From: Escherichia coli
Lineage (GTDB): Bacteria > Pseudomonadota > Gammaproteobacteria > Enterobacterales > Enterobacteriaceae
NCBI RefSeq assembly: GCF_044324785.1
Contig: NZ_CP172127.1
DNA: 64,000 nt
Strand: one strand, 5' to 3'
Shown here: piece by piece, positions 54,632-64,000 of the stretch
Position numbering within the stretch: the stretch's first letter is position 1
How the letters are laid out: every line of letters starts with the position of its first letter
Notes under the pieces: generated by a model
Databases searched by the model: none
Seen by the model: the letters and a program-made list of their open reading frames with translations, nothing else
What the model was told of the DNA's origin: nothing
Made by a program: the position numbers and the translations under genes

Positions 54632-55828
54632 TCTGTTATTCTCCTGTATTATTACTTCACCAGCCAGAACGGTAGTGCGGAGCAAAAATACAGTGATAAG
54701 AATCCTCTTTTATTAATTTAATAATGCCAGGAATATTATTGTGTATAATATGCGCCCTCAATTTAAGCAGCAGAAAAGCAATGACGAGAAAATCATTAAA
54801 ATACATAAAGATAAAACATCATAACTATAATTATAATAAGCGCGCTTATTTTAGCATCTGAACATTTAAAGTACTGCTATCACAAAACAATAAAAATCCT
54901 GGGTAATATCTCTGATGATTGAATGAGAAATTCACGATGTCTGGTGAGAATTCTGTTCAAAACGAGGAATGCAGACATACATGTGGCAGGCATGGACTTC
55001 CACCGATTTAACTTTTTTCCTTCCTTGTATTTACACATCACACATTTTGCGCTACAAAAATTTCACGTGGCACGCACCACGTGATCCGTAGAAAAGCCTC
55101 TTGTTACGAATTTCGTAAACCGCACGTCTGTCTGGTCGTGCGGATTTTTTATCCGTCAACTTCACATGAAACCGCCAGATCACTGTTTCCGGATTCAGAC
55201 ATCAGGCATATTATCATCCACAATGTCGTGAACAAGATCACACTTTTGCAATTCCTTTATTGATCGAAAGCAGTTAATCACGGAAATTAATTACCGGAGT
55301 GAAAGCATTACTGCATCGTAAATATCTACCATTTTTGACTACACCCTCTGACAGAATTTTCAGAGGGTTTTTTATCAGTTTCACCATCCAACCCTGTACG
55401 CCAGAATGGTTTCACTGTCACTCAGTTCTGCTATTGCCTTTTTCATCTCCCTTTACCTTACGTTCTGCCAGAGTCTGAGCCATTTGAACAGGAGGTTATC
55501 ATTGATATCGTGTTCCCGGGCAATACGGGCAACAGAGGCTCCTGGTTGCAAAACCAGTTTAACCATTTGAAGTTTAACTCATTTGAAAATGATCTGCGGG
55601 GTTCTGCGGATAATGTTTTTGCTCCATAACAGGCGCCCACCAGTTTGAAAAGGTGGGCACCTACGTTACCAATACTGGCTTAATGGATACATACGGCGGT
55701 CGGTTCTTACGGTAAAACGACACAACCAAACGCTTCTTATCCTGCAATGAACTGCTTTATTACCGAGTTTAGTGACCGCACAGACACTCACTTTTAAGAA
55801 AAACAGAATGGTAAACAAACTCCATGAA

Positions 55829-56005
55829 TTACAATAGCTCTCTGGCTGCCGCCACAATAGCTTGCGCGGTTAACCCGTACTCTCTCTGTAAAAAGTCCTG
55901 AGTTTCAACCTGGCCATACCGCTCTTTAACCCCCACCCGACGCATGGGCACAGGACAAGTTTCTACAAGCACTTCAGCAACTGCTGAACCTAATCCATTA
56001 TGAAT
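55829..56005 (-). pseudogene. C-terminal fragment of a transketolase-family (C-terminal subunit) gene, truncated by the IS1-family element
   Basis: Minus-strand frame ...HNGLGSAVAEVLVETCPVPMRRVGVKERYGQVETQDFLQREYGLTAQAIVAAARELL-stop. Confidence 0.45.
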
Positions 56006-56780
56006 ACGGTAATGACTCCAATTAGTTGAATTAGGAGTATAATAGCCACTTTTAAGGTTCTTTCATGGTCACAGTTAACCTTCATTGCTCCTGTTGCCAG
56101 TCCGTTCAGGTTTACCGTCACGGGAAGAACCCAAAGGACATGATCGATTTCGCTGCCGTGACTGTCATCGAGTGCTTCAGCTCACTTACCGTTACGAGGC
56201 CCGTAAACCGGGAGTTAAAGAGCAAATCACTGAAATGGCTTTCAACGGTGCCGGAGTTCGCGATACTGCCCGTACGCTGAAAATCGGCATTAATACTGTC
56301 ATCCGGACTTTAAAAAACTCTCGCCACGAAGAATAACGTCATACCCGGTCGCTCATGCTGATATGGCACTCATCTGCGAACTTGATGAGCAATGGAGTTT
56401 TGTCGGCAGTAAAGCGCGACAGCACTGGCTCTGGTACACGTACAACACGAAAACTGGTGGCGTTCTGGCCTACACTTTTGGCCTACGGACTGATTAAACC
56501 TGTCGTGAATTGCTGGCGCTGCTTGCCCTTTTACCATCGGTATGTTGACCACTGACGAATGGGGTAGTTACACCAGAGAGTTACCGAAGGAGAAGCATCT
56601 GACTGGTAAGATTTTTACTCAGCGCATTGAGCGCAACATCTACCTCTGAGAACCCGAATCAAACGTCTGGCCCGCAGAACTATCTGTTTCACGCGCTCTG
56701 TAGAACTTCATGAAAAAGTCATCGGTGCCTTTATCGAAAAATATATGTTCTACTAATTGGAGTCACCACCTTCGTTTGTT
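56006..56780 (+). mobile_element. Degenerate IS1-family element (divergent IS1 relative), frameshifted insA/insB
   Basis: IS1-like terminal sequences at both ends (GGTAATGACTCCAATTAG... and ...CTAATTGGAGTCACCACC); InsA-like ORFs 56065..56336 (CRDCHRVLQLTYRYEARKPGVKEQITEMAFNGAGVRDTARTLKIGINTVIRTLKN) and InsB-like fragments (ICELDEQWSFVGSKARQHWLWYTYN). Confidence 0.6.
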
Positions 56781-57322
56781 TAAAGAACCTGCTGGTCCTG
56801 CCATTAATATTACCTGCTGATTGCTTCACATCCGGATTCCTCGCACTGCGCGCGGGTTATTGTTTCGTTTTCGGCCACGGGGTCGCCAGGGCTCTGTTTG
56901 CAGGCCATGATGGCCTGACCTGTACTGTTTCTCAGGCACTGAGATGTCCGTTTACGCCATTTGTTCCCGGATATCCTTAACCTCTGACGTTTGTTCCCTG
57001 CCCCTCTGTCTGATAACGAATACGCTCACAACGCACAGTACTGAACAATACCGACAACAACATGTCTTACATGAAATTCGCTGTAACATCCACCGGAAAA
57101 CATTTTCAGATATCGGATGAGGTACTACTTCCATTGACAGCGCGAGGTAACAAAATTGATGGTAACTCTGACCATTAACCGTAAACCGCAGGGTATTTTC
57201 AGTAAATCACCGGCAACGCCGCTGCAGAATAAAACGGACACAGCATACAAAATGAAGGCCGGTGACCAGATACCACAGTTGAACGATAAACAGAAACCTG
57301 CTGATAAAACACCGTGGCGACA

Positions 57323-57667
57323 TGACAAAACGCCAGAGCAAAAACCGTAAGCGCATTATTCGTCTTGTGGAACTCTGGCCTGAGTCATTCAACCGGGAAA
57401 AAAACAAAACCACTTAAAGTGGGGATACCTGACGACCTGATACAGGATATCGCCATCCGAGAACTGGCGTTTGGCGCTGGTACATTACATGCAGCAGTGG
57501 CGTCTTATGTGCAGTCTCCGCGCTATTACCGTGCGTTAATAGCAGGTGGCGCCCGTTACAACCTGAACGGTCAGCCGTGCGGGGAAGTGACACCACAGGA
57601 ACAGAAAGAGGCAGAGACCCGTTTAATGATGCTGAATGACCGACGAAAAGACAGAAAACCTCGTTGA
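57323..57667 (+). pseudogene. ProQ/FinO-domain RNA-binding protein gene, frameshifted after about 30 codons
   Basis: MTKRQSKNRKRIIRLVELWPESFNREKNKTT-stop, then in another frame PLKVGIPDDLIQDIAIRELAFGAGTLHAAVASYVQSPRYYRALIAGGARYNLNGQPCGEVTPQEQKEAE. Confidence 0.5.
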
Positions 57668-57684
57668 CTGCACAACAGCGCTGT

Positions 57685-58422
57685 TCACTGAGCTGTAATC
57701 AATGTACAGCGCTGTACCGGGCGATGGGTAATACCGGTCACAACCGGTAACCCCAGAGACAATGCAACTGTTTTTAACGCAATATACTGGCCGGATGTAT
57801 CACCCCGGGCAGCCTGAAAACACCTTTCCACCCGGCATTGTCCGTCAGCACTTATCACCCGCCATGTCTGTTGCAATAAATCCACCCGTTGCGAACATTC
57901 TTCATCAACCGTGGCACTGACCCGTGGATGGCAAATGCTCGTCTGGCTGAGCAGCAACAGGCATCGCATTGTTGCTCCTCCATGTTGTTCCCGCAACCAG
58001 CGTAATACCACCGGTGGTGCTGGACTGGCCGTGTGATTACGTTCAGTAATACGCTCGTGCACCTGTCGGTAAAAGGAAGTACAGAATGCATGAATCTGTT
58101 GTCCGTTGATGTTTCCTTCTGCCGAATGGAGTGTGAAGTGGACGGCCAGCAGACGCGGCCAGTGATCCACCGCCTGCTGAATAAAACGCCGGATTTCCAC
58201 CGGCTCTGAAAGTACGGTTTCGGTTATTTGCACGATTTGATCCCCTTGAATGTTGCTGAACCGGTGTCGGTACGCAGGAAAGCACGCCGAGACCGGTACG
58301 ATGCCTGTTACAGCGAAGAACGAGGAATGACAGACGGGGGCAGCAGGTCGCCAGCACCAGGGACAGGGCTGATTTCCACAATACCAACGCTGGTATTTTG
58401 CACATTGCCAGCGTACCGGCAT
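57685..58422 (-). CDS. Hypothetical island protein downstream of alpA (paralog fragment at 23000..23567)
   Basis: Track ORF 57685..58479 overlaps alpA, so the start is probably later; a second long ORF is open in another frame over the same DNA (57855..58091), so the frame is uncertain. Confidence 0.35.
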   Translation of the reverse strand: MPVRWQCAKYQRWYCGNQPCPWCWRPAAPVCHSSFFAVTGIVPVSACFPAYRHRFSNIQGDQIVQITETVLSEPVEIRRFIQQAVDHWPRLLAVHFTLHSAEGNINGQQIHAFCTSFYRQVHERITERNHTASPAPPVVLRWLREQHGGATMRCLLLLSQTSICHPRVSATVDEECSQRVDLLQQTWRVISADGQCRVERCFQAARGDTSGQYIALKTVALSLGLPVVTGITHRPVQRCTLITAQ

Positions 58423-58433
58423 TACAACACGTT

Positions 58434-58670
58434 TCATGCGGCGACTCCCCGTGATGCTTCGATGCGCTGCTGCATCCACTGCTCCACTTCGCTTCTGTAC
58501 CAGCGGCTGCTGCGGCCCAGTTTGATGGGTTTAGGGAAATGGCCTTCACTGATCAGCTTGTAAAACCATTTGTCGGTCATACCAGTGAAGCTGGTGATGT
58601 AGTTCATGTCGATCAGGGGATCGTCGGCACGCAGCAATACGCTGTCGTGACCTGTCATTGAGGTCAACAT
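58434..58670 (-). CDS. alpA: AlpA-family phage/island regulatory protein (HTH)
   Basis: ...MNYITSFTGMTDKWFYKLISEGHFPKPIKLGRSSRWYRSEVEQWMQQRIE, typical AlpA/Vis-type small DNA-binding protein. Confidence 0.7.
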   Translation of the reverse strand: MLTSMTGHDSVLLRADDPLIDMNYITSFTGMTDKWFYKLISEGHFPKPIKLGRSSRWYRSEVEQWMQQRIEASRGVAA

Positions 58671-58738
58671 GGTCAGAATGTCCTCTGTGAGATTTATGAA
58701 TGTTGGGCAAATGCGGGTGAATCTGCTGAGCTGAGCTT

Positions 58739-59341
58739 TCAGAGCTGGCCTGCTACGGGATACCAGGGATTACCGGCGAGGTAACGGGCTTCCGGATCGC
58801 GCACACCACGACGATCGCGGGCGAAATCACTGAACGCCCATATCAGCTCTTTGAGTCTCTCTTCGCAGTCCGGTGAACGGGGATCCAGCAGCACATCCCG
58901 GGTAATCTGCTTCTGGTACGGTGCCGCTTCACCCGGTGACGCGAAGCCCAGTACGTTGCTCCAGGCATCCAGAATCAGCCGATCCAGTTCAGGGCCGTCG
59001 AAATATTCCTCCCTGACGCACAGCACCACGTGGTATTCCGGTTTTTCAGGATGACGAGTCAGGAGCCAGCAGAGATCACGTCCGGGGGTTGCATTCATCA
59101 GCGCACTGACGGTTTCGATAAAGGCCATACCGAACCAGGTTTTTCTGTCGCTGAAGATGTTGCCATGTTCCCCCGGCAGACGAAGCAGGATCCGCCGTAT
59201 TCGGGAGCAGGGCTGCTCACGCAGCGCACGCTCAAGGACACCGATAACTTTGCTCTGATAAGATGGCCAGAAGGGCGCCATGCTATAGTCGAAATAAGGG
59301 ATAGCATTCATAAGATATGTTCCGTTATACGCAGCCCACAA
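58739..59341 (-). pseudogene. Inovirus-Gp2-like (YagK/YfjJ-family) gene, 5' end degenerate
   Basis: Contains KPEYHVVLCVREEYFDG (compare HYHVILLLNKDTW in the neighbour); the conserved upstream leader is present at 59471..59535 but the ATG after it is lost. Confidence 0.5.
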
Positions 59342-59667
59342 CGCGTCCTGCCCGTGGATGCGCTGACGTGTTATGGCTTGCGTATGGGGTTGATGGAATA
59401 AGTGAAAAACCGCGGCAGAACGGGAAGATCAGGTAACCGACAAGGGACAGAACACCGGATGCAGGTTCAGAATGAATGATCTCCGTTGACTTCGGTTCAC
59501 ATCATTAAGCAGGACAGTAAGGTTTTACCGACGGAGTGTTTCCAGGAGCGAAAGCAGAGAAAAATACCGTTGCATGACTTCAGGACGACTTTTTCAGAAA
59601 ACGAGCTAAGGGCGTCAGCCAACGTCCTGTAGCATAAGCTCAGGCACCGGATGTCGTTTTACAGGGC

Positions 59668-60399
59668 TCACCTGCCATCCAGTAGACGCCCCGGCCCACG
59701 ACTGCAACCATAATTACGTTGCCCGGAACCGTTATGCAACTTCGTTTCATATTTCACGAGATAACTGGCTCTGTTCCGGGCTTTCTGCATCGCTTCCACA
59801 TCACCACGCTTGACCCAGAGCACAGCGGATTCACCCGGCTTTTTGTCTGAAGCCTTCCTGGTATCAGAACATCCACCCGACAAAGGCGTATCATCGGAAG
59901 AAGGGCGAGCATCAGATGATGTCGGTTTACGGAAAGGCGTCCGCCTGGAAAAATGAACCAGTCCATTACCCTGCCAGGGCTCAAGATGCAGAGCACTACA
60001 CCATGCCAGCTTGATCAGTGTCGCCAGCGAAGAAGGAACGGTGAAATCCCCTGGCGAGCACCAGGTATCTTTGTTGAGCAGCAATATCACGTGATAATGT
60101 TTCCTGCCTTTTTCCTTGCCAAACTCCCGGCACCAGAAATAACGCAGAGTGGTTGCACGCACACGCTTGTTGGCACGTCGTTTTTTCCGCTGGTAAGCCT
60201 GAATTTTGGCTTTCAGGGATGCAAAAAAACGAGAAATCACCGCTGAATCCGGATCGGGATCCATGATGGTGACAGGCATATACTCAGGGAAACGTAAATC
60301 CACCCGGATTAACGAGACGGCACGGTGCTGCGCCAGGGCACTGTCGAGAAGGCTGTCAAAACGGGATAACCAGTAAGCATTATGTATTGGTTGATTCAT
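59668..60399 (-). CDS. Inovirus-Gp2-like (YagK/YfjJ-family) protein
   Basis: 243-aa ORF with RBS GGAGAT 10 bp before the ATG; motif RKHYHVILLLNKDTW typical of this island-associated family. Confidence 0.65.
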   Translation of the reverse strand: MNQPIHNAYWLSRFDSLLDSALAQHRAVSLIRVDLRFPEYMPVTIMDPDPDSAVISRFFASLKAKIQAYQRKKRRANKRVRATTLRYFWCREFGKEKGRKHYHVILLLNKDTWCSPGDFTVPSSLATLIKLAWCSALHLEPWQGNGLVHFSRRTPFRKPTSSDARPSSDDTPLSGGCSDTRKASDKKPGESAVLWVKRGDVEAMQKARNRASYLVKYETKLHNGSGQRNYGCSRGPGRLLDGR

Positions 60400-61319
60400 G
60401 ATGAGAGATCTCCGTTGATTTGGATTGACTTCACATCATTAATCACCGCAGTAAAACTTTACGGCGTCCTGTCATTAAGCAACACCAGTGGCTCCTGATT
60501 AGAACAGAATGAGTTTCCCACGAACAAAAAGACAAACCTACACGCAGGGTAAAAACACGCAACAACAGCATGAATGGATTTGAAAACAATATGGATGACG
60601 AAAAATGTCAAAAGTGAAACGGATCAACAGAACGTGCAAACAAAACGTCAGAAACGCAATCAGAGCACTTTCTGGCGCTGTGAATCAACAACAACACCAA
60701 AACCTACAGCTTAACCACATTACTCAATCACGAATGCGAATGACACGTTTAAAACCTGTTTACAGATAACGCCGTAACACGATCATCCCCATCACCATCA
60801 GAATCGATTTTCTCATCCCGAAAATGTTACGTTTCACTACGCACCATAAAAACGATTAACCATCGATAACGTAAATCTCATCTGAATCAAAAAACCAAAA
60901 CCAATCATCACACTTTCGCAATGCAAGAAGAAAAACCACATCATGACGAAAACAATGACCTTACATGAAAAAGCAAAACGTCAGGAATCGTTAATGCCTC
61001 AATCTGATTGTTATCAAAACATCCAGAAAGTCGTTTAACAGAATCGTCGTAAGCACATCGAAAAGAACGTCAGATCACCTCAGGAAAGTTCGGGTTGATT
61101 TAGCGTAAAGATACTTTTCTCAGCTTAACGTCGAAACACAAACCAAAAACCACAAACAACCAAAGCTCAGGAAAGGTTAAACGTCACATCAGTAAAATCG
61201 AATAGCAGATTGATTGCTTAAACAGAAAGGTTTTACAGCAGCTTTAAACTGATTTTAGCTAACGTAAAGATTTACTAAACTGGATGAGTTTCAGACAAAG
61301 CAATGTGTACAGCAATGCT

Positions 61320-61500
61320 TAATGAAAACACTTATAGGGCTGTTTATGAAAACACGTGTATGTCTGGTAAAACACTTAGTAGAAAATACGTGTATAACAC
61401 TTACTGAAATGCTTAGTAAAAATACTTAGTAAAATATGTGTAGAATTATCTATTTAAAAAGATATGTATATAACACTTAATAAAAACATGTGTATATAGT
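61320..61500. repeat. Cluster of short direct repeats and palindromes (iteron-like)
   Basis: AACACTTA(G/C)T at about 61323, 61367, 61403, 61468; CTTAGTAAAA at 61371, 61410, 61423; palindromes ACACGTGT (61349), ATACGTGTAT (61385), ACATGT (61485). Confidence 0.4.
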
Positions 61501-62138
61501 ATCATACCGACATTCTCAACATCTTCAGACTTCCATACATACTGGGTGTTGATTTCTCACTTTTACAGCCAGCATGGAGTTTTCTGTCCTAAAAACAGAG
61601 CAGATTTACTCTGGAATTATTTTTCTGCCCCCGTATTTCAGGCCCCAGAAAAGACAATCCGAAGCAAACCGTTTGTCAGCCTCCATATCATCTTTTACCC
61701 CCGGAAAGTGATCGCGTTTTACAACCAGAATGACAGCCATACTGATTATGTCGTCTCCCGGCCCCCTTCACATATAACATGCATGTCTGTCATTGCTTAC
61801 TGCTCCACATGACCGGATTTCACATACAGGATGCACATTCAGTGTTTTTATCGCCACTATAACAGACAGATTACTGTCGTCTTTACTCTTCAGATTGTTA
61901 ATCTGACCACAAGAACAGCCGAACGGCAAAACGCCCTCCACAAGGGGCACATGAACCATAGTTGATAGCATGTTTTTCCTAATCAAGGAATAGTTCAGGA
62001 ATATTTTATTGCATTAATAACTGGCGAATAATCGTTCTGTGAACACAAAATGCTTTTATTTGTAAATTTTATTGCATTGCACTCGTTTTATTGATATGGG
62101 GTTTAATAACAGATAACCCGGAAAGAAGGAGAAAACAG

Positions 62139-62930
62139 ATGACATTACGGATTAACGATCAGGGGCGAGATAAACAGAATCAATTTTTATCGAAAAATGG
62201 AGAAAATCTGAATTCGTTAAAATCGCGTCATGTGCAGGATAGGCATTTACCTGAATGGCTTAAGGATAAAGTTGCAGCATTCTGGTTTTGTCTGGTGATA
62301 AAGGATATGAAAGTGTCAGGGAGCAGTTACTATGAACTTACCATGCAACTTCCCACTTCTGAAGAATCTGTTTGCATCAGTAAGCTGTCATCCTCAACCC
62401 ATGAGATTCGGCTGGAGATCATCAGGCGATGGATTGATAGTGTAGCACAGATAGAAACGGAAGCTTTTACTAAAAATCTCGTTGATGCCATCTATAAAAA
62501 CTGGAAGGAAATCGGGAACAAAAACCAGGCTACATGGCTTAAAAAAAATCCGGAACAACTCGAGTGGGCATGGAAATATATTAACATTCGTATTCCCGAG
62601 TCACATTTAACCTGGTTTTGCCCCGTCAATAACGAAGAGAAACGCATTGCCATCTTAGCATTGCTTAAAATACTGTATCCCGGAGATATACCATGCCAGT
62701 ACAACGACAAAGAGTTTCATGTCGGGATCTGCGCTGAAGAACATTTTTACAGAAGAATGCACGACGCTTTCAGAAAACAGTTTATCGACGGGAAAAAAGA
62801 TAAACGGGTACAAATTAACGTAAAGATATCACCGTCCGCAAAAAGCGCTCTGGACAGACTGACCAGAGCGAGGAAAACAACACAGCAGGCTATTCTGGAA
62901 CAACTGATTCTGAACGGTAGACTGGATTAA
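62139..62930 (+). CDS. Hypothetical protein, 263 aa, with a possible ribbon-helix-helix-like C-terminus
   Basis: RBS AAGGAGA 7 bp before the ATG at 62139 (track ORF starts at 62091); C-terminal ...VQINVKISPSAKSALDRLTRARKTTQQAILEQLIL. Confidence 0.45.
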   Translation: MTLRINDQGRDKQNQFLSKNGENLNSLKSRHVQDRHLPEWLKDKVAAFWFCLVIKDMKVSGSSYYELTMQLPTSEESVCISKLSSSTHEIRLEIIRRWIDSVAQIETEAFTKNLVDAIYKNWKEIGNKNQATWLKKNPEQLEWAWKYINIRIPESHLTWFCPVNNEEKRIAILALLKILYPGDIPCQYNDKEFHVGICAEEHFYRRMHDAFRKQFIDGKKDKRVQINVKISPSAKSALDRLTRARKTTQQAILEQLILNGRLD

Positions 62931-63928
62931 CTTTCACTACTTCCACTCCTGGCAGTTTTCCTCTTTTTGTAGTGTCTCCCGGCTGCAGGCATCAGGTACT
63001 TTTCCGTCATTTCGTTGCAGAACTCTTCAATGTAGTTAATCAGCTTCTGGTGTGCTTTCACCTTTTCTTCCCCGGGGGACGCTTTCAGATAAATGTCCTC
63101 CTTTTCCACAAGTGTATTTATAAACTCTCCCGGACATCCCTGGTTATAAAGCAACGTGAAAAACAACACATTCCCCAGTCTCTCCAGTAACTGCGATTTA
63201 ACCCTGTATTGTTGTTTGCTGAGGATTGATTGTTTTATAAAGCTTAGTCTTGTTAAAAGTTGTTCAAATCCCGGTTCCAGTTTAAAAACAGATTTTAATA
63301 CCAGGGACTGATACTCCTGATAAAAAAGTTCAAACGTCGGGGATGCAGACTGACGAACAGATTTGGCTACAACCCATGGACTAAATCCCATGATTGGGAT
63401 TTCCTTCGCTCCCTCCAGCGCACTCAGAGGTAGTCCAGCAATCCATGCGTCCAGCTTAGCCGAATCAATATCCCCGCTCAAAACCTCATACAAACTGCCC
63501 GTGAACGGTTGAGTCGGTTTTTTTGTTGTTTTACCTTCTGATTGCCTGAATCCATCCACTTTTCTCCGGATATTACGCGGAATCAGCATAAAAGGCGGGA
63601 CATTAAGTGATAAACGTTTACCCGTCATACGATACCAGTGGCCCACCTCAACCTTAATCCGTGTATCTGGCCTTGTATCTGGCCTTGTATCTGGCCTTAG
63701 CTCAAGTGCTATTATGTTAAGCAGGTACAGATAACGCACCGTATAACAGTCAAAATGTTTCTCCGGATCAAACGGCTCTGATCGTTCTCTGCACACAAGT
63801 CCGCTGCGCTTCAGTATTCGCTGGGTATCTTTCCAGGCCTTACTCTGAAGAATGGTGGTAACTCTGGCTTTATTAGCAATCTCACGCAGCGCATCACTTT
63901 GTTGTGCCGTCATCTCTTCCCTCCACAC
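62927..63928 (-). CDS. Hypothetical protein, 333 aa, with an internal RPDT tandem repeat
   Basis: Long ORF convergent with and overlapping the previous gene by 4 bp; contains a 12-bp x3 DNA tandem repeat encoding RPDTRPDTRPDTR. Confidence 0.5.
   Translation of the reverse strand: MWREEMTAQQSDALREIANKARVTTILQSKAWKDTQRILKRSGLVCRERSEPFDPEKHFDCYTVRYLYLLNIIALELRPDTRPDTRPDTRIKVEVGHWYRMTGKRLSLNVPPFMLIPRNIRRKVDGFRQSEGKTTKKPTQPFTGSLYEVLSGDIDSAKLDAWIAGLPLSALEGAKEIPIMGFSPWVVAKSVRQSASPTFELFYQEYQSLVLKSVFKLEPGFEQLLTRLSFIKQSILSKQQYRVKSQLLERLGNVLFFTLLYNQGCPGEFINTLVEKEDIYLKASPGEEKVKAHQKLINYIEEFCNEMTEKYLMPAAGRHYKKRKTARSGSSES
63663..63698. repeat. 12-bp tandem repeat x3 (GTATCTGGCCTT) inside the 62927..63928 ORF
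   Basis: Three exact head-to-tail copies. Confidence 0.9.
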
Positions 63929-64000
63929 TTTGTCACTCCAGATTTTTTCACGTCCATATTACCTGAATGATAAACCGGATTAGTGTGATCCGGTTCAGCG

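Follow-up and report, generated by a model that had tools for sequence, protein, structure and literature searches.

The window analysed here is a stretch of 64,000 nucleotides of Escherichia coli DNA, numbered from its first letter, and it belongs to a chromosomal island with a CP4-57/P4-like backbone in which an array of short direct repeats lies upstream of a gene for a Gp2/YfjJ-like protein. The repeats fall within 1.74 kb (60400-62138) that hold no credible gene. To the left of this gap a minus-strand operon encodes Gp2, a 200-aa paralogue, an AlpA protein and a YagK/YfjJ-domain protein; to its right stand a 263-aa open reading frame and then a convergent 333-aa frame, and past the window end follow GTPase, DUF932, antirestriction, RadC and toxin-antitoxin genes. 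The array is probably the binding array of Gp2, because it adjoins a short core that is conserved beside one family of DNA-nicking, Rep-like genes in the genomic islands of many bacteria of the gut. The features on which the argument rests are as follows.

58434..58670, minus strand: AlpA-family excisionase/regulator of 78 aa, in the Gp2 operon
59668..60399, minus strand: Gp2/YfjJ-like gene, predicted Rep-class HUH endonuclease and proposed trans partner of the array
60400..60470, minus strand: leader of the Gp2 gene with its probable promoter, hardly varying among 10 E. coli copies
60471..61301, plus strand: A+C-rich spacer from the Gp2 promoter to the array, E. coli-specific, with no detectable constraint
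61302..61493, plus strand: direct-repeat array of 12 degenerate units with an AAYRYKTR core, 11-14 bp period, 26.6% G+C
61495..61513, plus strand: 19-nt core TATAGTATCATACCGACAT (= TATAtTACCAAnCCGACA), consensus TATAtTAC(C/T)A(A/T)nCC(G/A)ACA
61596..61625, both strands: terminator-like hairpin CAGAG-N8-CTCTG with a T-rich run, overlapping block 2
61608..61621, plus strand: block 2, ACTCTGGAATTATT (= ACTCTGnAnTTA), consensus (C)ACTCTG(G/A/C)A(G/T/A)TTA
62139..62930, plus strand: 263-aa protein with a weak C-terminal ribbon-helix-helix (RHH) match (Pfam RHH_1, i-E 0.065)

A first-pass annotation of the window, made from its letters alone, had reported a cluster of repeats at this place, and the cluster is real and far above chance: its k-mer repeat score is 48/28/17 for k = 6, 7 and 8 against shuffle means of 17.5, 6.1 and 2.1, and the observed score was reached by none of 2000 dinucleotide shuffles. 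The location given for it, some 180 bp with a few repeats, holds, but the array is larger and comprises 12 units. The motif AAYRYKTR matches 12 times on the plus strand between 61302 and 61485 and not at all on the minus strand there, with 27 plus-strand matches over the remaining 63.8 kb. Successive units start 12, 13, 24, 20, 14, 11, 12, 13, 12, 39 and 13 bp apart and form two alternating subtypes, one AACACTTAGTA-like and the other AATACGTGTAT-like. The four copies of AACACTTA that had been described are present (61327, 61371, 61396 and 61472, all on the plus strand, with one further copy in the whole 64 kb), but the (G/C)T extension attributed to them is found in two of the four only, and CTTAGTAAAA, reported three times, has just two exact copies (61412 and 61425). 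Two of three proposed palindromes are genuine, ACACGTGT at 61352 and ACATGT at 61486; the third, ATACGTGTAT, is not palindromic, its reverse complement being ATACACGTAT. The palindromes are portions of one unit subtype rather than independent features, and the suggestion that they are operators for a dimeric regulator, which had been based on them, loses its footing given that one is not palindromic and that all units run in one direction. The array is the most A+T-rich stretch of the region (27% G+C), and A-tracts open most units. Among E. coli copies the number of units ranges from 5 to 12, whole units being gained or lost, and the last unit is fixed 21-22 bp ahead of the CCGACA of the core in all 12 copies compared.

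A Gp2 profile search with one genome per species gave 49 loci, and a position-weight-matrix match to the core, or a close variant, was found in about 40 of 47 loci from at least 15 genera, 130-530 bp upstream of the Gp2-like gene and invariably directed away from it. These genera include Escherichia, Providencia, Proteus, Morganella, Budvicia, Tatumella, Rosenbergiella, Yokenella, Phytobacter, Enterobacter, Kluyvera, Cedecea, Klebsiella, Brenneria and Pectobacterium, and a variant of the core is seen in Comamonas and Delftia. It occurs once in the 64-kb window, and as a control, 16 chance matches in viral contigs had neither Gp2, AlpA nor block 2 nearby. The core holds a -10-like hexamer, TATAGT (61495-61500), and is a candidate nick or initiation site and/or a candidate promoter -10 plus transcription start.

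Many lineages carry direct repeats of their own that abut the 5' side of the core and all run the same way: AAACACATA in Providencia heimbachae, CATATAAA in Budvicia, TAATATC six times in an Enterobacter, units of about 11-13 bp in Yokenella and a 23-bp unit twice in Proteus myxofaciens. Absence of the repeats from homologous islands, which the first-pass annotation had named as telling against a functional array, was thus not what was found: this position is taken by arrays in further E. coli islands and, with different sequences, in other genera too. Some lineages have no such repeats; among variable parts attached in this way to the invariant one, the array of E. coli is the largest.

Block 2 is an imperfect palindrome, (T)AACT-CTGN-AGTT(A), which lies 57-122 bp past CCGACA in 34 of 38 loci and forms the right edge of the backbone common to E. 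coli islands, variants of which diverge some 10-25 bp beyond it. The core-to-block-2 distances of the 34 loci cluster at 57, 67, 77-81, 88-93, 101, 112 and 122 bp, and in a Rayleigh scan the strongest period is about 11.25 bp (R = 0.69), which, on points that are phylogenetically dependent, suggests helical phasing of two protein sites; the steps of about 11 bp, a weak signal from non-independent points, hint at a constraint at the level of DNA rather than RNA. Other genera do not have the 5' arm of the terminator-like hairpin that overlaps block 2, and E. coli variants retain it only weakly. A structured small RNA running from the core to block 2 was considered and set aside, given that fold z scores over 32 lineages are close to zero (mean z = -0.13), that the alifold consensus is weak (-8.2) and that the E. 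coli hairpin has no clean covariation. A search of 55000-64000 against Rfam 15 gave a chance-level PhotoRC-I match at 59909 (E = 0.15) and nothing in 60400-62140.

Several Enterobacteriaceae other than E. coli (loci L039, L040, L042, L043, L046, L047, L049, L059 and L060) have a third block, CAATAGAAGAAG(A), 27-28 nt past CCGACA. Three Gp2 loci, in Hafnia (L018), Tenebrionibacter (L020) and Siccibacter (L021), lack the core and block 2, so Gp2 is able to persist without the module; in L018 and L020 a gene starting MRLKSVAVKNFRCYA, whose product looks like an OLD/AAA-type ATPase, begins some 260 bp 5' of Gp2.

Within E. coli, the array region is found in 1861 of 5426 complete genomes, in up to 6 copies per genome and nearly always on the chromosome, and a full-length Gp2 of the array-linked subfamily is found in 1873 of them. 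Ten diverged E. coli loci were retrieved by searching with the array sequence instead of the gene, and Gp2 adjoins the array in all ten, so that the array stands as a conserved, functional-looking cis element linked to its neighbouring Gp2-like gene, as had been proposed. Beyond Gp2 the genes vary (ireA, dsdC, IS66, IS100, a restriction endonuclease, an acyltransferase), as does the rightward cargo past block 2, and the backbone that the islands have in common extends from the start of Gp2 to about 61625-61640. The divergence K of the core module falls into two ranges, 0.015-0.055 for copies of one allelic type and 0.22-0.39 when types are compared, a bimodal pattern that indicates mosaic recombination. 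The leader segment 60400-60470 is constrained, with K = 0.054 against a synonymous divergence (dS) of 0.15, and carries at 60451-60462 the sequence GTAAAACTTTAC, which resembles an array unit and is kept elsewhere as G(C/T)GTAAAAAATAC; leader-proximal blocks are found also in Tatumella, Hafnia, Tenebrionibacter and Siccibacter. The spacer of about 0.8 kb is absent in other genera and is not constrained (K = 0.236 over 60600-61250, above the same dS); on its plus strand (60500-61250) the AT skew rises to +0.51 and the GC skew falls to -0.45, and short open reading frames are annotated in it only sporadically. A C-rich, G-poor transcript of this spacer might suit Rho loading. To the left of the array the spacer holds CGTAAAGAT(A/T)(C/T)T twice (61104-61112 and 61263-61271), and in locus L003 the second copy and its flank (AACGTAAAGATTTAC) are duplicated in tandem. 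Relic coding sequence in the gap was sought by tblastn with RHH-family proteins, which gave nothing below E = 0.07, and a small frame at 61574 is not conserved, having a stop in the alignment of L006. The E. coli island inspected for array motifs at an integrase/att end proved to be a mosaic without an integrase in the vicinity. The CP4-57 island of K-12 was discarded as a comparison: it carries another paralogue, yfjJ, in a different arrangement without a convincing core, and K-12 transcript maps are for that reason unusable here.

The neighbouring gene had been described as kin of replication initiators, and this is borne out. Gp2 matches PF11726 (3e-35) and PF23343, 'Replication-associated protein ORF2/G2P' (1.3e-8), the residues H101, H103, Y213, K216 and K220 are invariant in 43 homologues, and the order of the motifs, HUH followed by Tyr, is the Rep-class arrangement. 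Judged by its sequence, Gp2 is a Rep-class HUH nuclease with intact catalytic residues. The fold of Gp2 is matched by origin-binding nuclease domains, namely those of parvovirus NS1, the Rep of adeno-associated virus (AAV), RepB and circovirus Rep, proteins that bind tandem direct repeats beside nick sites. The gene is under purifying selection, with a ratio of non-synonymous to synonymous divergence (dN/dS) of 0.32, and is intact in the nine copies analysed; the tenth copy, at L009, is annotated as frameshifted. Two further HUH-like paralogues are encoded in the same minus-strand operon, at 58739-59341 and 57685-58233, making three related proteins: the 200-aa paralogue has motifs, RILLRLP and EYHVVL, that resemble RVDLRFP and HYHVIL of Gp2, and the 182-aa paralogue is called a YagK/YfjJ-domain protein by the Prokaryotic Genome Annotation Pipeline (PGAP).

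Which protein would occupy the repeats can be narrowed by asking which gene stays with them. The 263-aa RHH protein, which the first-pass annotation had put forward as a binder, is excluded: it is missing from four of the ten E. coli islands (L004, L006, L007 and L009), all of which keep the array, it is 25-49% identical among the others, in which the units are constant, and its gene has different upstream repeats of its own, ATTTTATTGCATT at 62003-62015 and 62066-62078. Other E. coli islands have diverged versions of this gene with other upstream repeats, such as GAATAGTT, and the family is present also in Budvicia (306 aa) and Proteus (312 aa); it looks like an autoregulated, hypervariable family of immunity type. 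AlpA, whose gene stands beside Gp2 in nearly all genera, is excluded on the opposite ground, since its DNA-binding core, TG(M/L)(T/S)DKWFYKLI..G.FPKPIKLGRSSRW, is essentially invariant across genera while their arrays are unrelated; it possibly suits the invariant blocks better than the array. A role for AlpA as a Q-like antiterminator was also weighed, given that promoter, spacer site and terminator are similarly arranged, and was rejected as a remote analogy: the AlpA of Pseudomonas aeruginosa, for which a Q-like antiterminator model with DNA contacts at residues 128-142 has been published (PMC7969949, PMC9371919), is larger than the 78-aa island protein, and the hairpin is specific to E. 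coli. The YfjR-like protein with WYL and helix-turn-helix (HTH) domains is 33-37% identical between genera and nearly constant in E. coli, and its gene is missing from the island of the window and from L005 and L010, where the arrays are intact. In the ten array-queried loci no gene other than Gp2 is kept with the array throughout, and the divergence of Gp2 is followed by that of the arrays: they are alike at 88-93% identity between the Gp2 proteins, still related at 70% and no longer related at 35-50%, the proteins being 35-53% identical between genera. On balance, it is slightly favoured that Gp2 binds the array.

The reading preferred here, tentatively and at a likelihood a little short of even, is that the array consists of lineage-specific, expandable iterons for Gp2, set against a conserved 19-nt core that would be an initiation or nick site and/or the -10 element of a rightward promoter. 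Several Gp2 molecules would occupy head-to-tail units about 12 bp apart, and bound Gp2 would load at the core, where the DNA is very rich in A+T, or deform it there. Initiation at the core might then follow through a strand nick by Tyr213, as at a rolling-circle-type replication or transfer origin after excision of the island, and/or binding would control a rightward promoter with its -10 within the core; the palindromic block some 100 bp further on would be a second conserved protein site in the same control region. The sequence comparisons establish how the array is built, that the core and block 2 are conserved, that the module is linked to Gp2, that Gp2 has the HUH fold with its catalytic residues intact, and that neither the RHH protein nor AlpA is the array binder; we infer that Gp2 binds the units, that a nick is made and where it is made. 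In favour of this reading are the presence of Gp2 beside the array in all ten E. coli loci and the near-equal genome counts of gene and array; the purifying selection on Gp2, intact in all nine copies analysed; the fold class of Gp2, which by analogy points to repeat binding, with its invariant HUH, Tyr and Lys residues; the family-wide layout of lineage-specific repeats 5' of an invariant core in one orientation; arrays that track Gp2 divergence over the same loci at which the DNA-binding region of AlpA is invariant; the conservation of CC(G/A)ACA and ACCAA, beyond the needs of a -10 hexamer; and the A+T-richness of the array. The stronger proposal, that array, core and block 2 form an unrecognised rolling-circle replication or conjugative-transfer origin of a large family of P4-like islands, with Gp2/YfjJ as its Rep or relaxase, is less likely than not.

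Among known systems, the site would work most like the control region of an HUH initiator, with iterons and a conserved core between divergent operons. The double-strand origins of pMV158/pE194 type, with the 'bind' and 'nic' loci of RepB, likewise have direct repeats of about 11 bp beside a family-conserved sequence, upstream of the rep gene, but they have 2-3 repeat units where the E. coli array has 5-12, the E. coli site is without a hairpin at the candidate nick, and the array is in an integrated island, no autonomous replicon of the Gp2 family being known. The common region of geminiviruses and CRESS-DNA viruses resembles the module in its leftward Rep, its lineage-specific iterons overlapping a promoter, its invariant A+T-rich core (TATATTAC...) and its rightward operon; unlike it, the island core is not in a stem-loop and Gp2 has no helicase domain. 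TATATTAC resembles the geminivirus nonanucleotide TAATATT/AC, a likeness that may reflect no more than a -10 box. At parvovirus and AAV origins, NS1 or Rep binds tandem 4-nt units (ACCA or GAGC) beside the nick, in the hairpinned telomere of a linear single-stranded DNA virus, whereas the island units are 11-14 bp long and chromosomal. The switches governed by Cox (P2), Apl (186), Vis (P4) and XisF4 (Pf4), the last of which activates a replication-initiator gene (PMC7379572), share the P4-like backbone, an AlpA/Vis-family gene, here in the Gp2 operon, and direct repeats in a control region between divergent operons; they differ in that the AlpA DNA-binding region is invariant while arrays differ by lineage, and in that the array period of 11-14 bp is not one helical turn. 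Theta origins and centromeres (pSC101, P1, R6K and parC of R1) also have multiple direct repeats of variable number in A+T-rich DNA, but the array region has no DnaA boxes, no RepA-type initiator and no ParA/ParM partner, and the only RHH candidate for a parC/ParR centromere is excluded. The hairpin of the rolling-circle class is missing, as are the defining features of theta origins and centromeres.

Several observations weigh against Gp2 iterons at an initiation core. Most rolling-circle origins display the nick in a loop. At the core no hairpin or cruciform is seen, the single-stranded fold of 61440-61560 having -7.1 kcal/mol and z = 0.07, and there is no consistent inverted repeat round the core in other genera. 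Autonomous replication by the Gp2 family has never been seen, since no small plasmid or verified phage carries the gene: a Gp2-like gene is found in 66 of 72,556 plasmid records, no small plasmid among these, and at E <= 1e-3 the 50,697 phage records yield no verified phage with such a protein, so the label 'inovirus' is unsupported there. An 11.7-kb 'plasmid' with Gp2 proved to be a linear chromosomal fragment, and the sole 'phage' with a Gp2-like gene, OR844780.1 (L067), is an unverified 4.5-kb contig at 3.7x from a phage preparation and is probably host DNA. Tatumella, Rosenbergiella and most of the Proteus/Providencia rettgeri group are without obvious repeats 5' of the core, and 12 units are many for a rolling-circle 'bind' locus. 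The covariation of array and Gp2 is inseparable from shared phylogeny. A rare E. coli variant (9 genomes) has a TAATAT-type array like that of Enterobacter and Phytobacter, with core, block 2 and rightward genes kept, and in it the module is apart from Gp2 or has no Gp2 near: in L084 (2880-3010) an SH3-domain gene and a transposase fragment lie between the array and an ordinary E. coli-type Gp2, and in L086 there is no Gp2 within 4 kb to the left of the array, an SH3-domain gene, a transposase fragment and an IS21-like element being found there. This variant was tried for a within-species covariation test, which was abandoned given the SH3 gene and transposase fragment left of the array in both genomes examined. 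Finally, a hexamer in the core suits a sigma-70 -10 element and keeps a constant spacing to CCGACA, and in compact islands the first rightward gene begins 186-290 nt downstream, so that transcription alone explains much of the anatomy.

That last point leads to the principal rival, in which the array is purely transcriptional: the core would supply the -10 element and start point of a sigma-70 promoter that depends on an activator, the repeats would replace a -35 element and nothing would be nicked. The regulator would be another island protein (for example the YfjR-like WYL-HTH protein) or a host nucleoid protein, and the operon that of the RHH protein, GTPase, DUF932, antirestriction, RadC and toxin-antitoxin genes, as in the Cox/Apl/Vis switches of P2, 186 and P4. 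This is nearly as likely as the preferred reading. The -10-like hexamers TATAGT, TATATT and AATAAT stand 6-7 nt ahead of CCGACA in most loci (the exceptions being L023, L039 and L040), a promoter scan selects the core site in the window and in Providencia (L012), yet it calls no promoter in Tatumella (L017). A repeat unit takes the -35 position (AACACT/TAACAC in the window), where the window has no -35 element and other genera no good one. The same-strand first gene of compact islands starts 186-290 nt on. About 100 nt beyond the core E. coli has the terminator-like hairpin, and variable cargo also lies between the core and the rightward genes; the stretch from core to block 2 is not stable RNA, and Gp2 keeps the module where the rightward cargo has been exchanged. 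The WYL-HTH protein is variable between genera and near-constant in E. coli, in parallel with the arrays, but its gene is missing from three islands whose arrays are intact, and AlpA is unable to explain lineage-specific arrays. Control of replication-initiator genes by small excisionase-type regulators has been published for integrated elements (PMC7379572), which favours the rival. A promoter, on the other side, would not need CC(G/A)ACA and block 2 to be invariant. The origin-like and promoter readings both fit the data and need not exclude each other.

Three further explanations are less probable. The repeats could be A+T-rich structural or silencing DNA, that is a slippage-prone minisatellite, curved DNA, a site of H-NS nucleation or functionless sequence, with no dedicated binder. 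The low G+C content, the A-tracts, the free copy number of 5-12 and the lack of repeats in some lineages would suit this, as would the H-NS-type silencing documented for alpA-type genes in integrated elements (PMC7379572 and work cited there); but the units keep a strict single orientation, the register of the last unit to the core is fixed (-22/-21), unrelated repeats hold the same position in other genera, and the A-tracts are unphased for a planar bend because a unit period of 11-14 bp is not helical, which leaves this reading improbable. A theta-type iteron origin for another island protein, for example YfjI/DUF3987, which may be related to the P4 alpha primase-helicase, would be analogous to P4 ori/crr or to the ori of a Staphylococcus aureus pathogenicity island (SaPI), and is slightly less probable still. 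Direct repeats of variable number in very A+T-rich DNA, the occurrence of YfjI/DUF3987 genes in such islands and the P4-like backbone with its AlpA and CP4-57-type gene set agree with it. Nonetheless, the region 61150-61700 has no TTATCCACA (at up to one mismatch), TTWTNCACA, IHF consensus or GATC, the units measure 11-14 bp, not 17-22 bp, the window and most E. coli copies have no YfjI gene in the vicinity of the array, and in no locus does YfjI adjoin the array, as Gp2 does in the array-queried loci. The adjacent genes, Gp2 and variable cargo, include no initiator of RepA/pi/TrfA or primase-helicase type, and a classical theta origin is unlikely given that there are no DnaA boxes and that no plasmid or phage uses Gp2. 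Least probable is an operator array for the 263-aa protein in the manner of ParR, omega or CopG. RHH proteins typically bind tandem repeats, the weak C-terminal match is of this type, and in Proteus about four E. coli-like units (AAAATACTACGT) lie directly upstream of the homologous 312-aa gene; against this stand the islands that keep the array without the gene, the variability of the protein where the units are the same, the distance of 640 bp past the terminator-like hairpin and the distinct repeats that the gene has of its own.

No description of the module, or of a cis site for Gp2/YfjJ-type proteins, was found in the literature. Genes of the Gp2/YfjJ/YagK type belong to the backbone of CP4-57-like islands and of many pathogenicity islands, with relatives across Enterobacterales and in Pseudomonas islands, and a conserved module beside the gene makes autonomous replication or transfer of these 'cryptic' islands a testable question. 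A 2025 study places 'inovirus Gp2-like proteins' among the likely core functions of AlpA/integrase islands and assigns them no role (PMC12595487). If the origin reading were true, these islands, among them pathogenicity-island backbones in about one third of E. coli genomes, would be actively replicating or mobilisable, with element-specific 'incompatibility' types of iteron, through a protein long annotated as 'inovirus Gp2' or 'unknown'. From lineage-specific arrays one would further expect that islands residing in the same cell fall into specificity or incompatibility groups.

Some minor observations were made on the repeats of other genera and on neighbouring genes. The Proteus units mentioned above were seen in Proteus faecis (L028, 3060-3125), where about four E. 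coli-array-like units (AAACACTACGT, AAAATACTATGT, AAACATATGC and AAAAATACTACGT) lie downstream of the core and directly upstream of the RHH-like 312-aa gene, and in Brenneria (L011, 5270-5370) AAAATGTGT occurs four times upstream of an unrelated 323-aa gene. In the window itself, the hypothetical 333-aa protein (62927-63928, minus strand) contains the tandem peptide repeat RPDT three times at residues 78-89. On the plus strand at 57365-57667 lies a fragment of the ProQ/FinO family (NCBIfam E = 6e-11 and 2e-10), the relic of an RNA chaperone, which is annotated as frameshifted in a near-identical genome.

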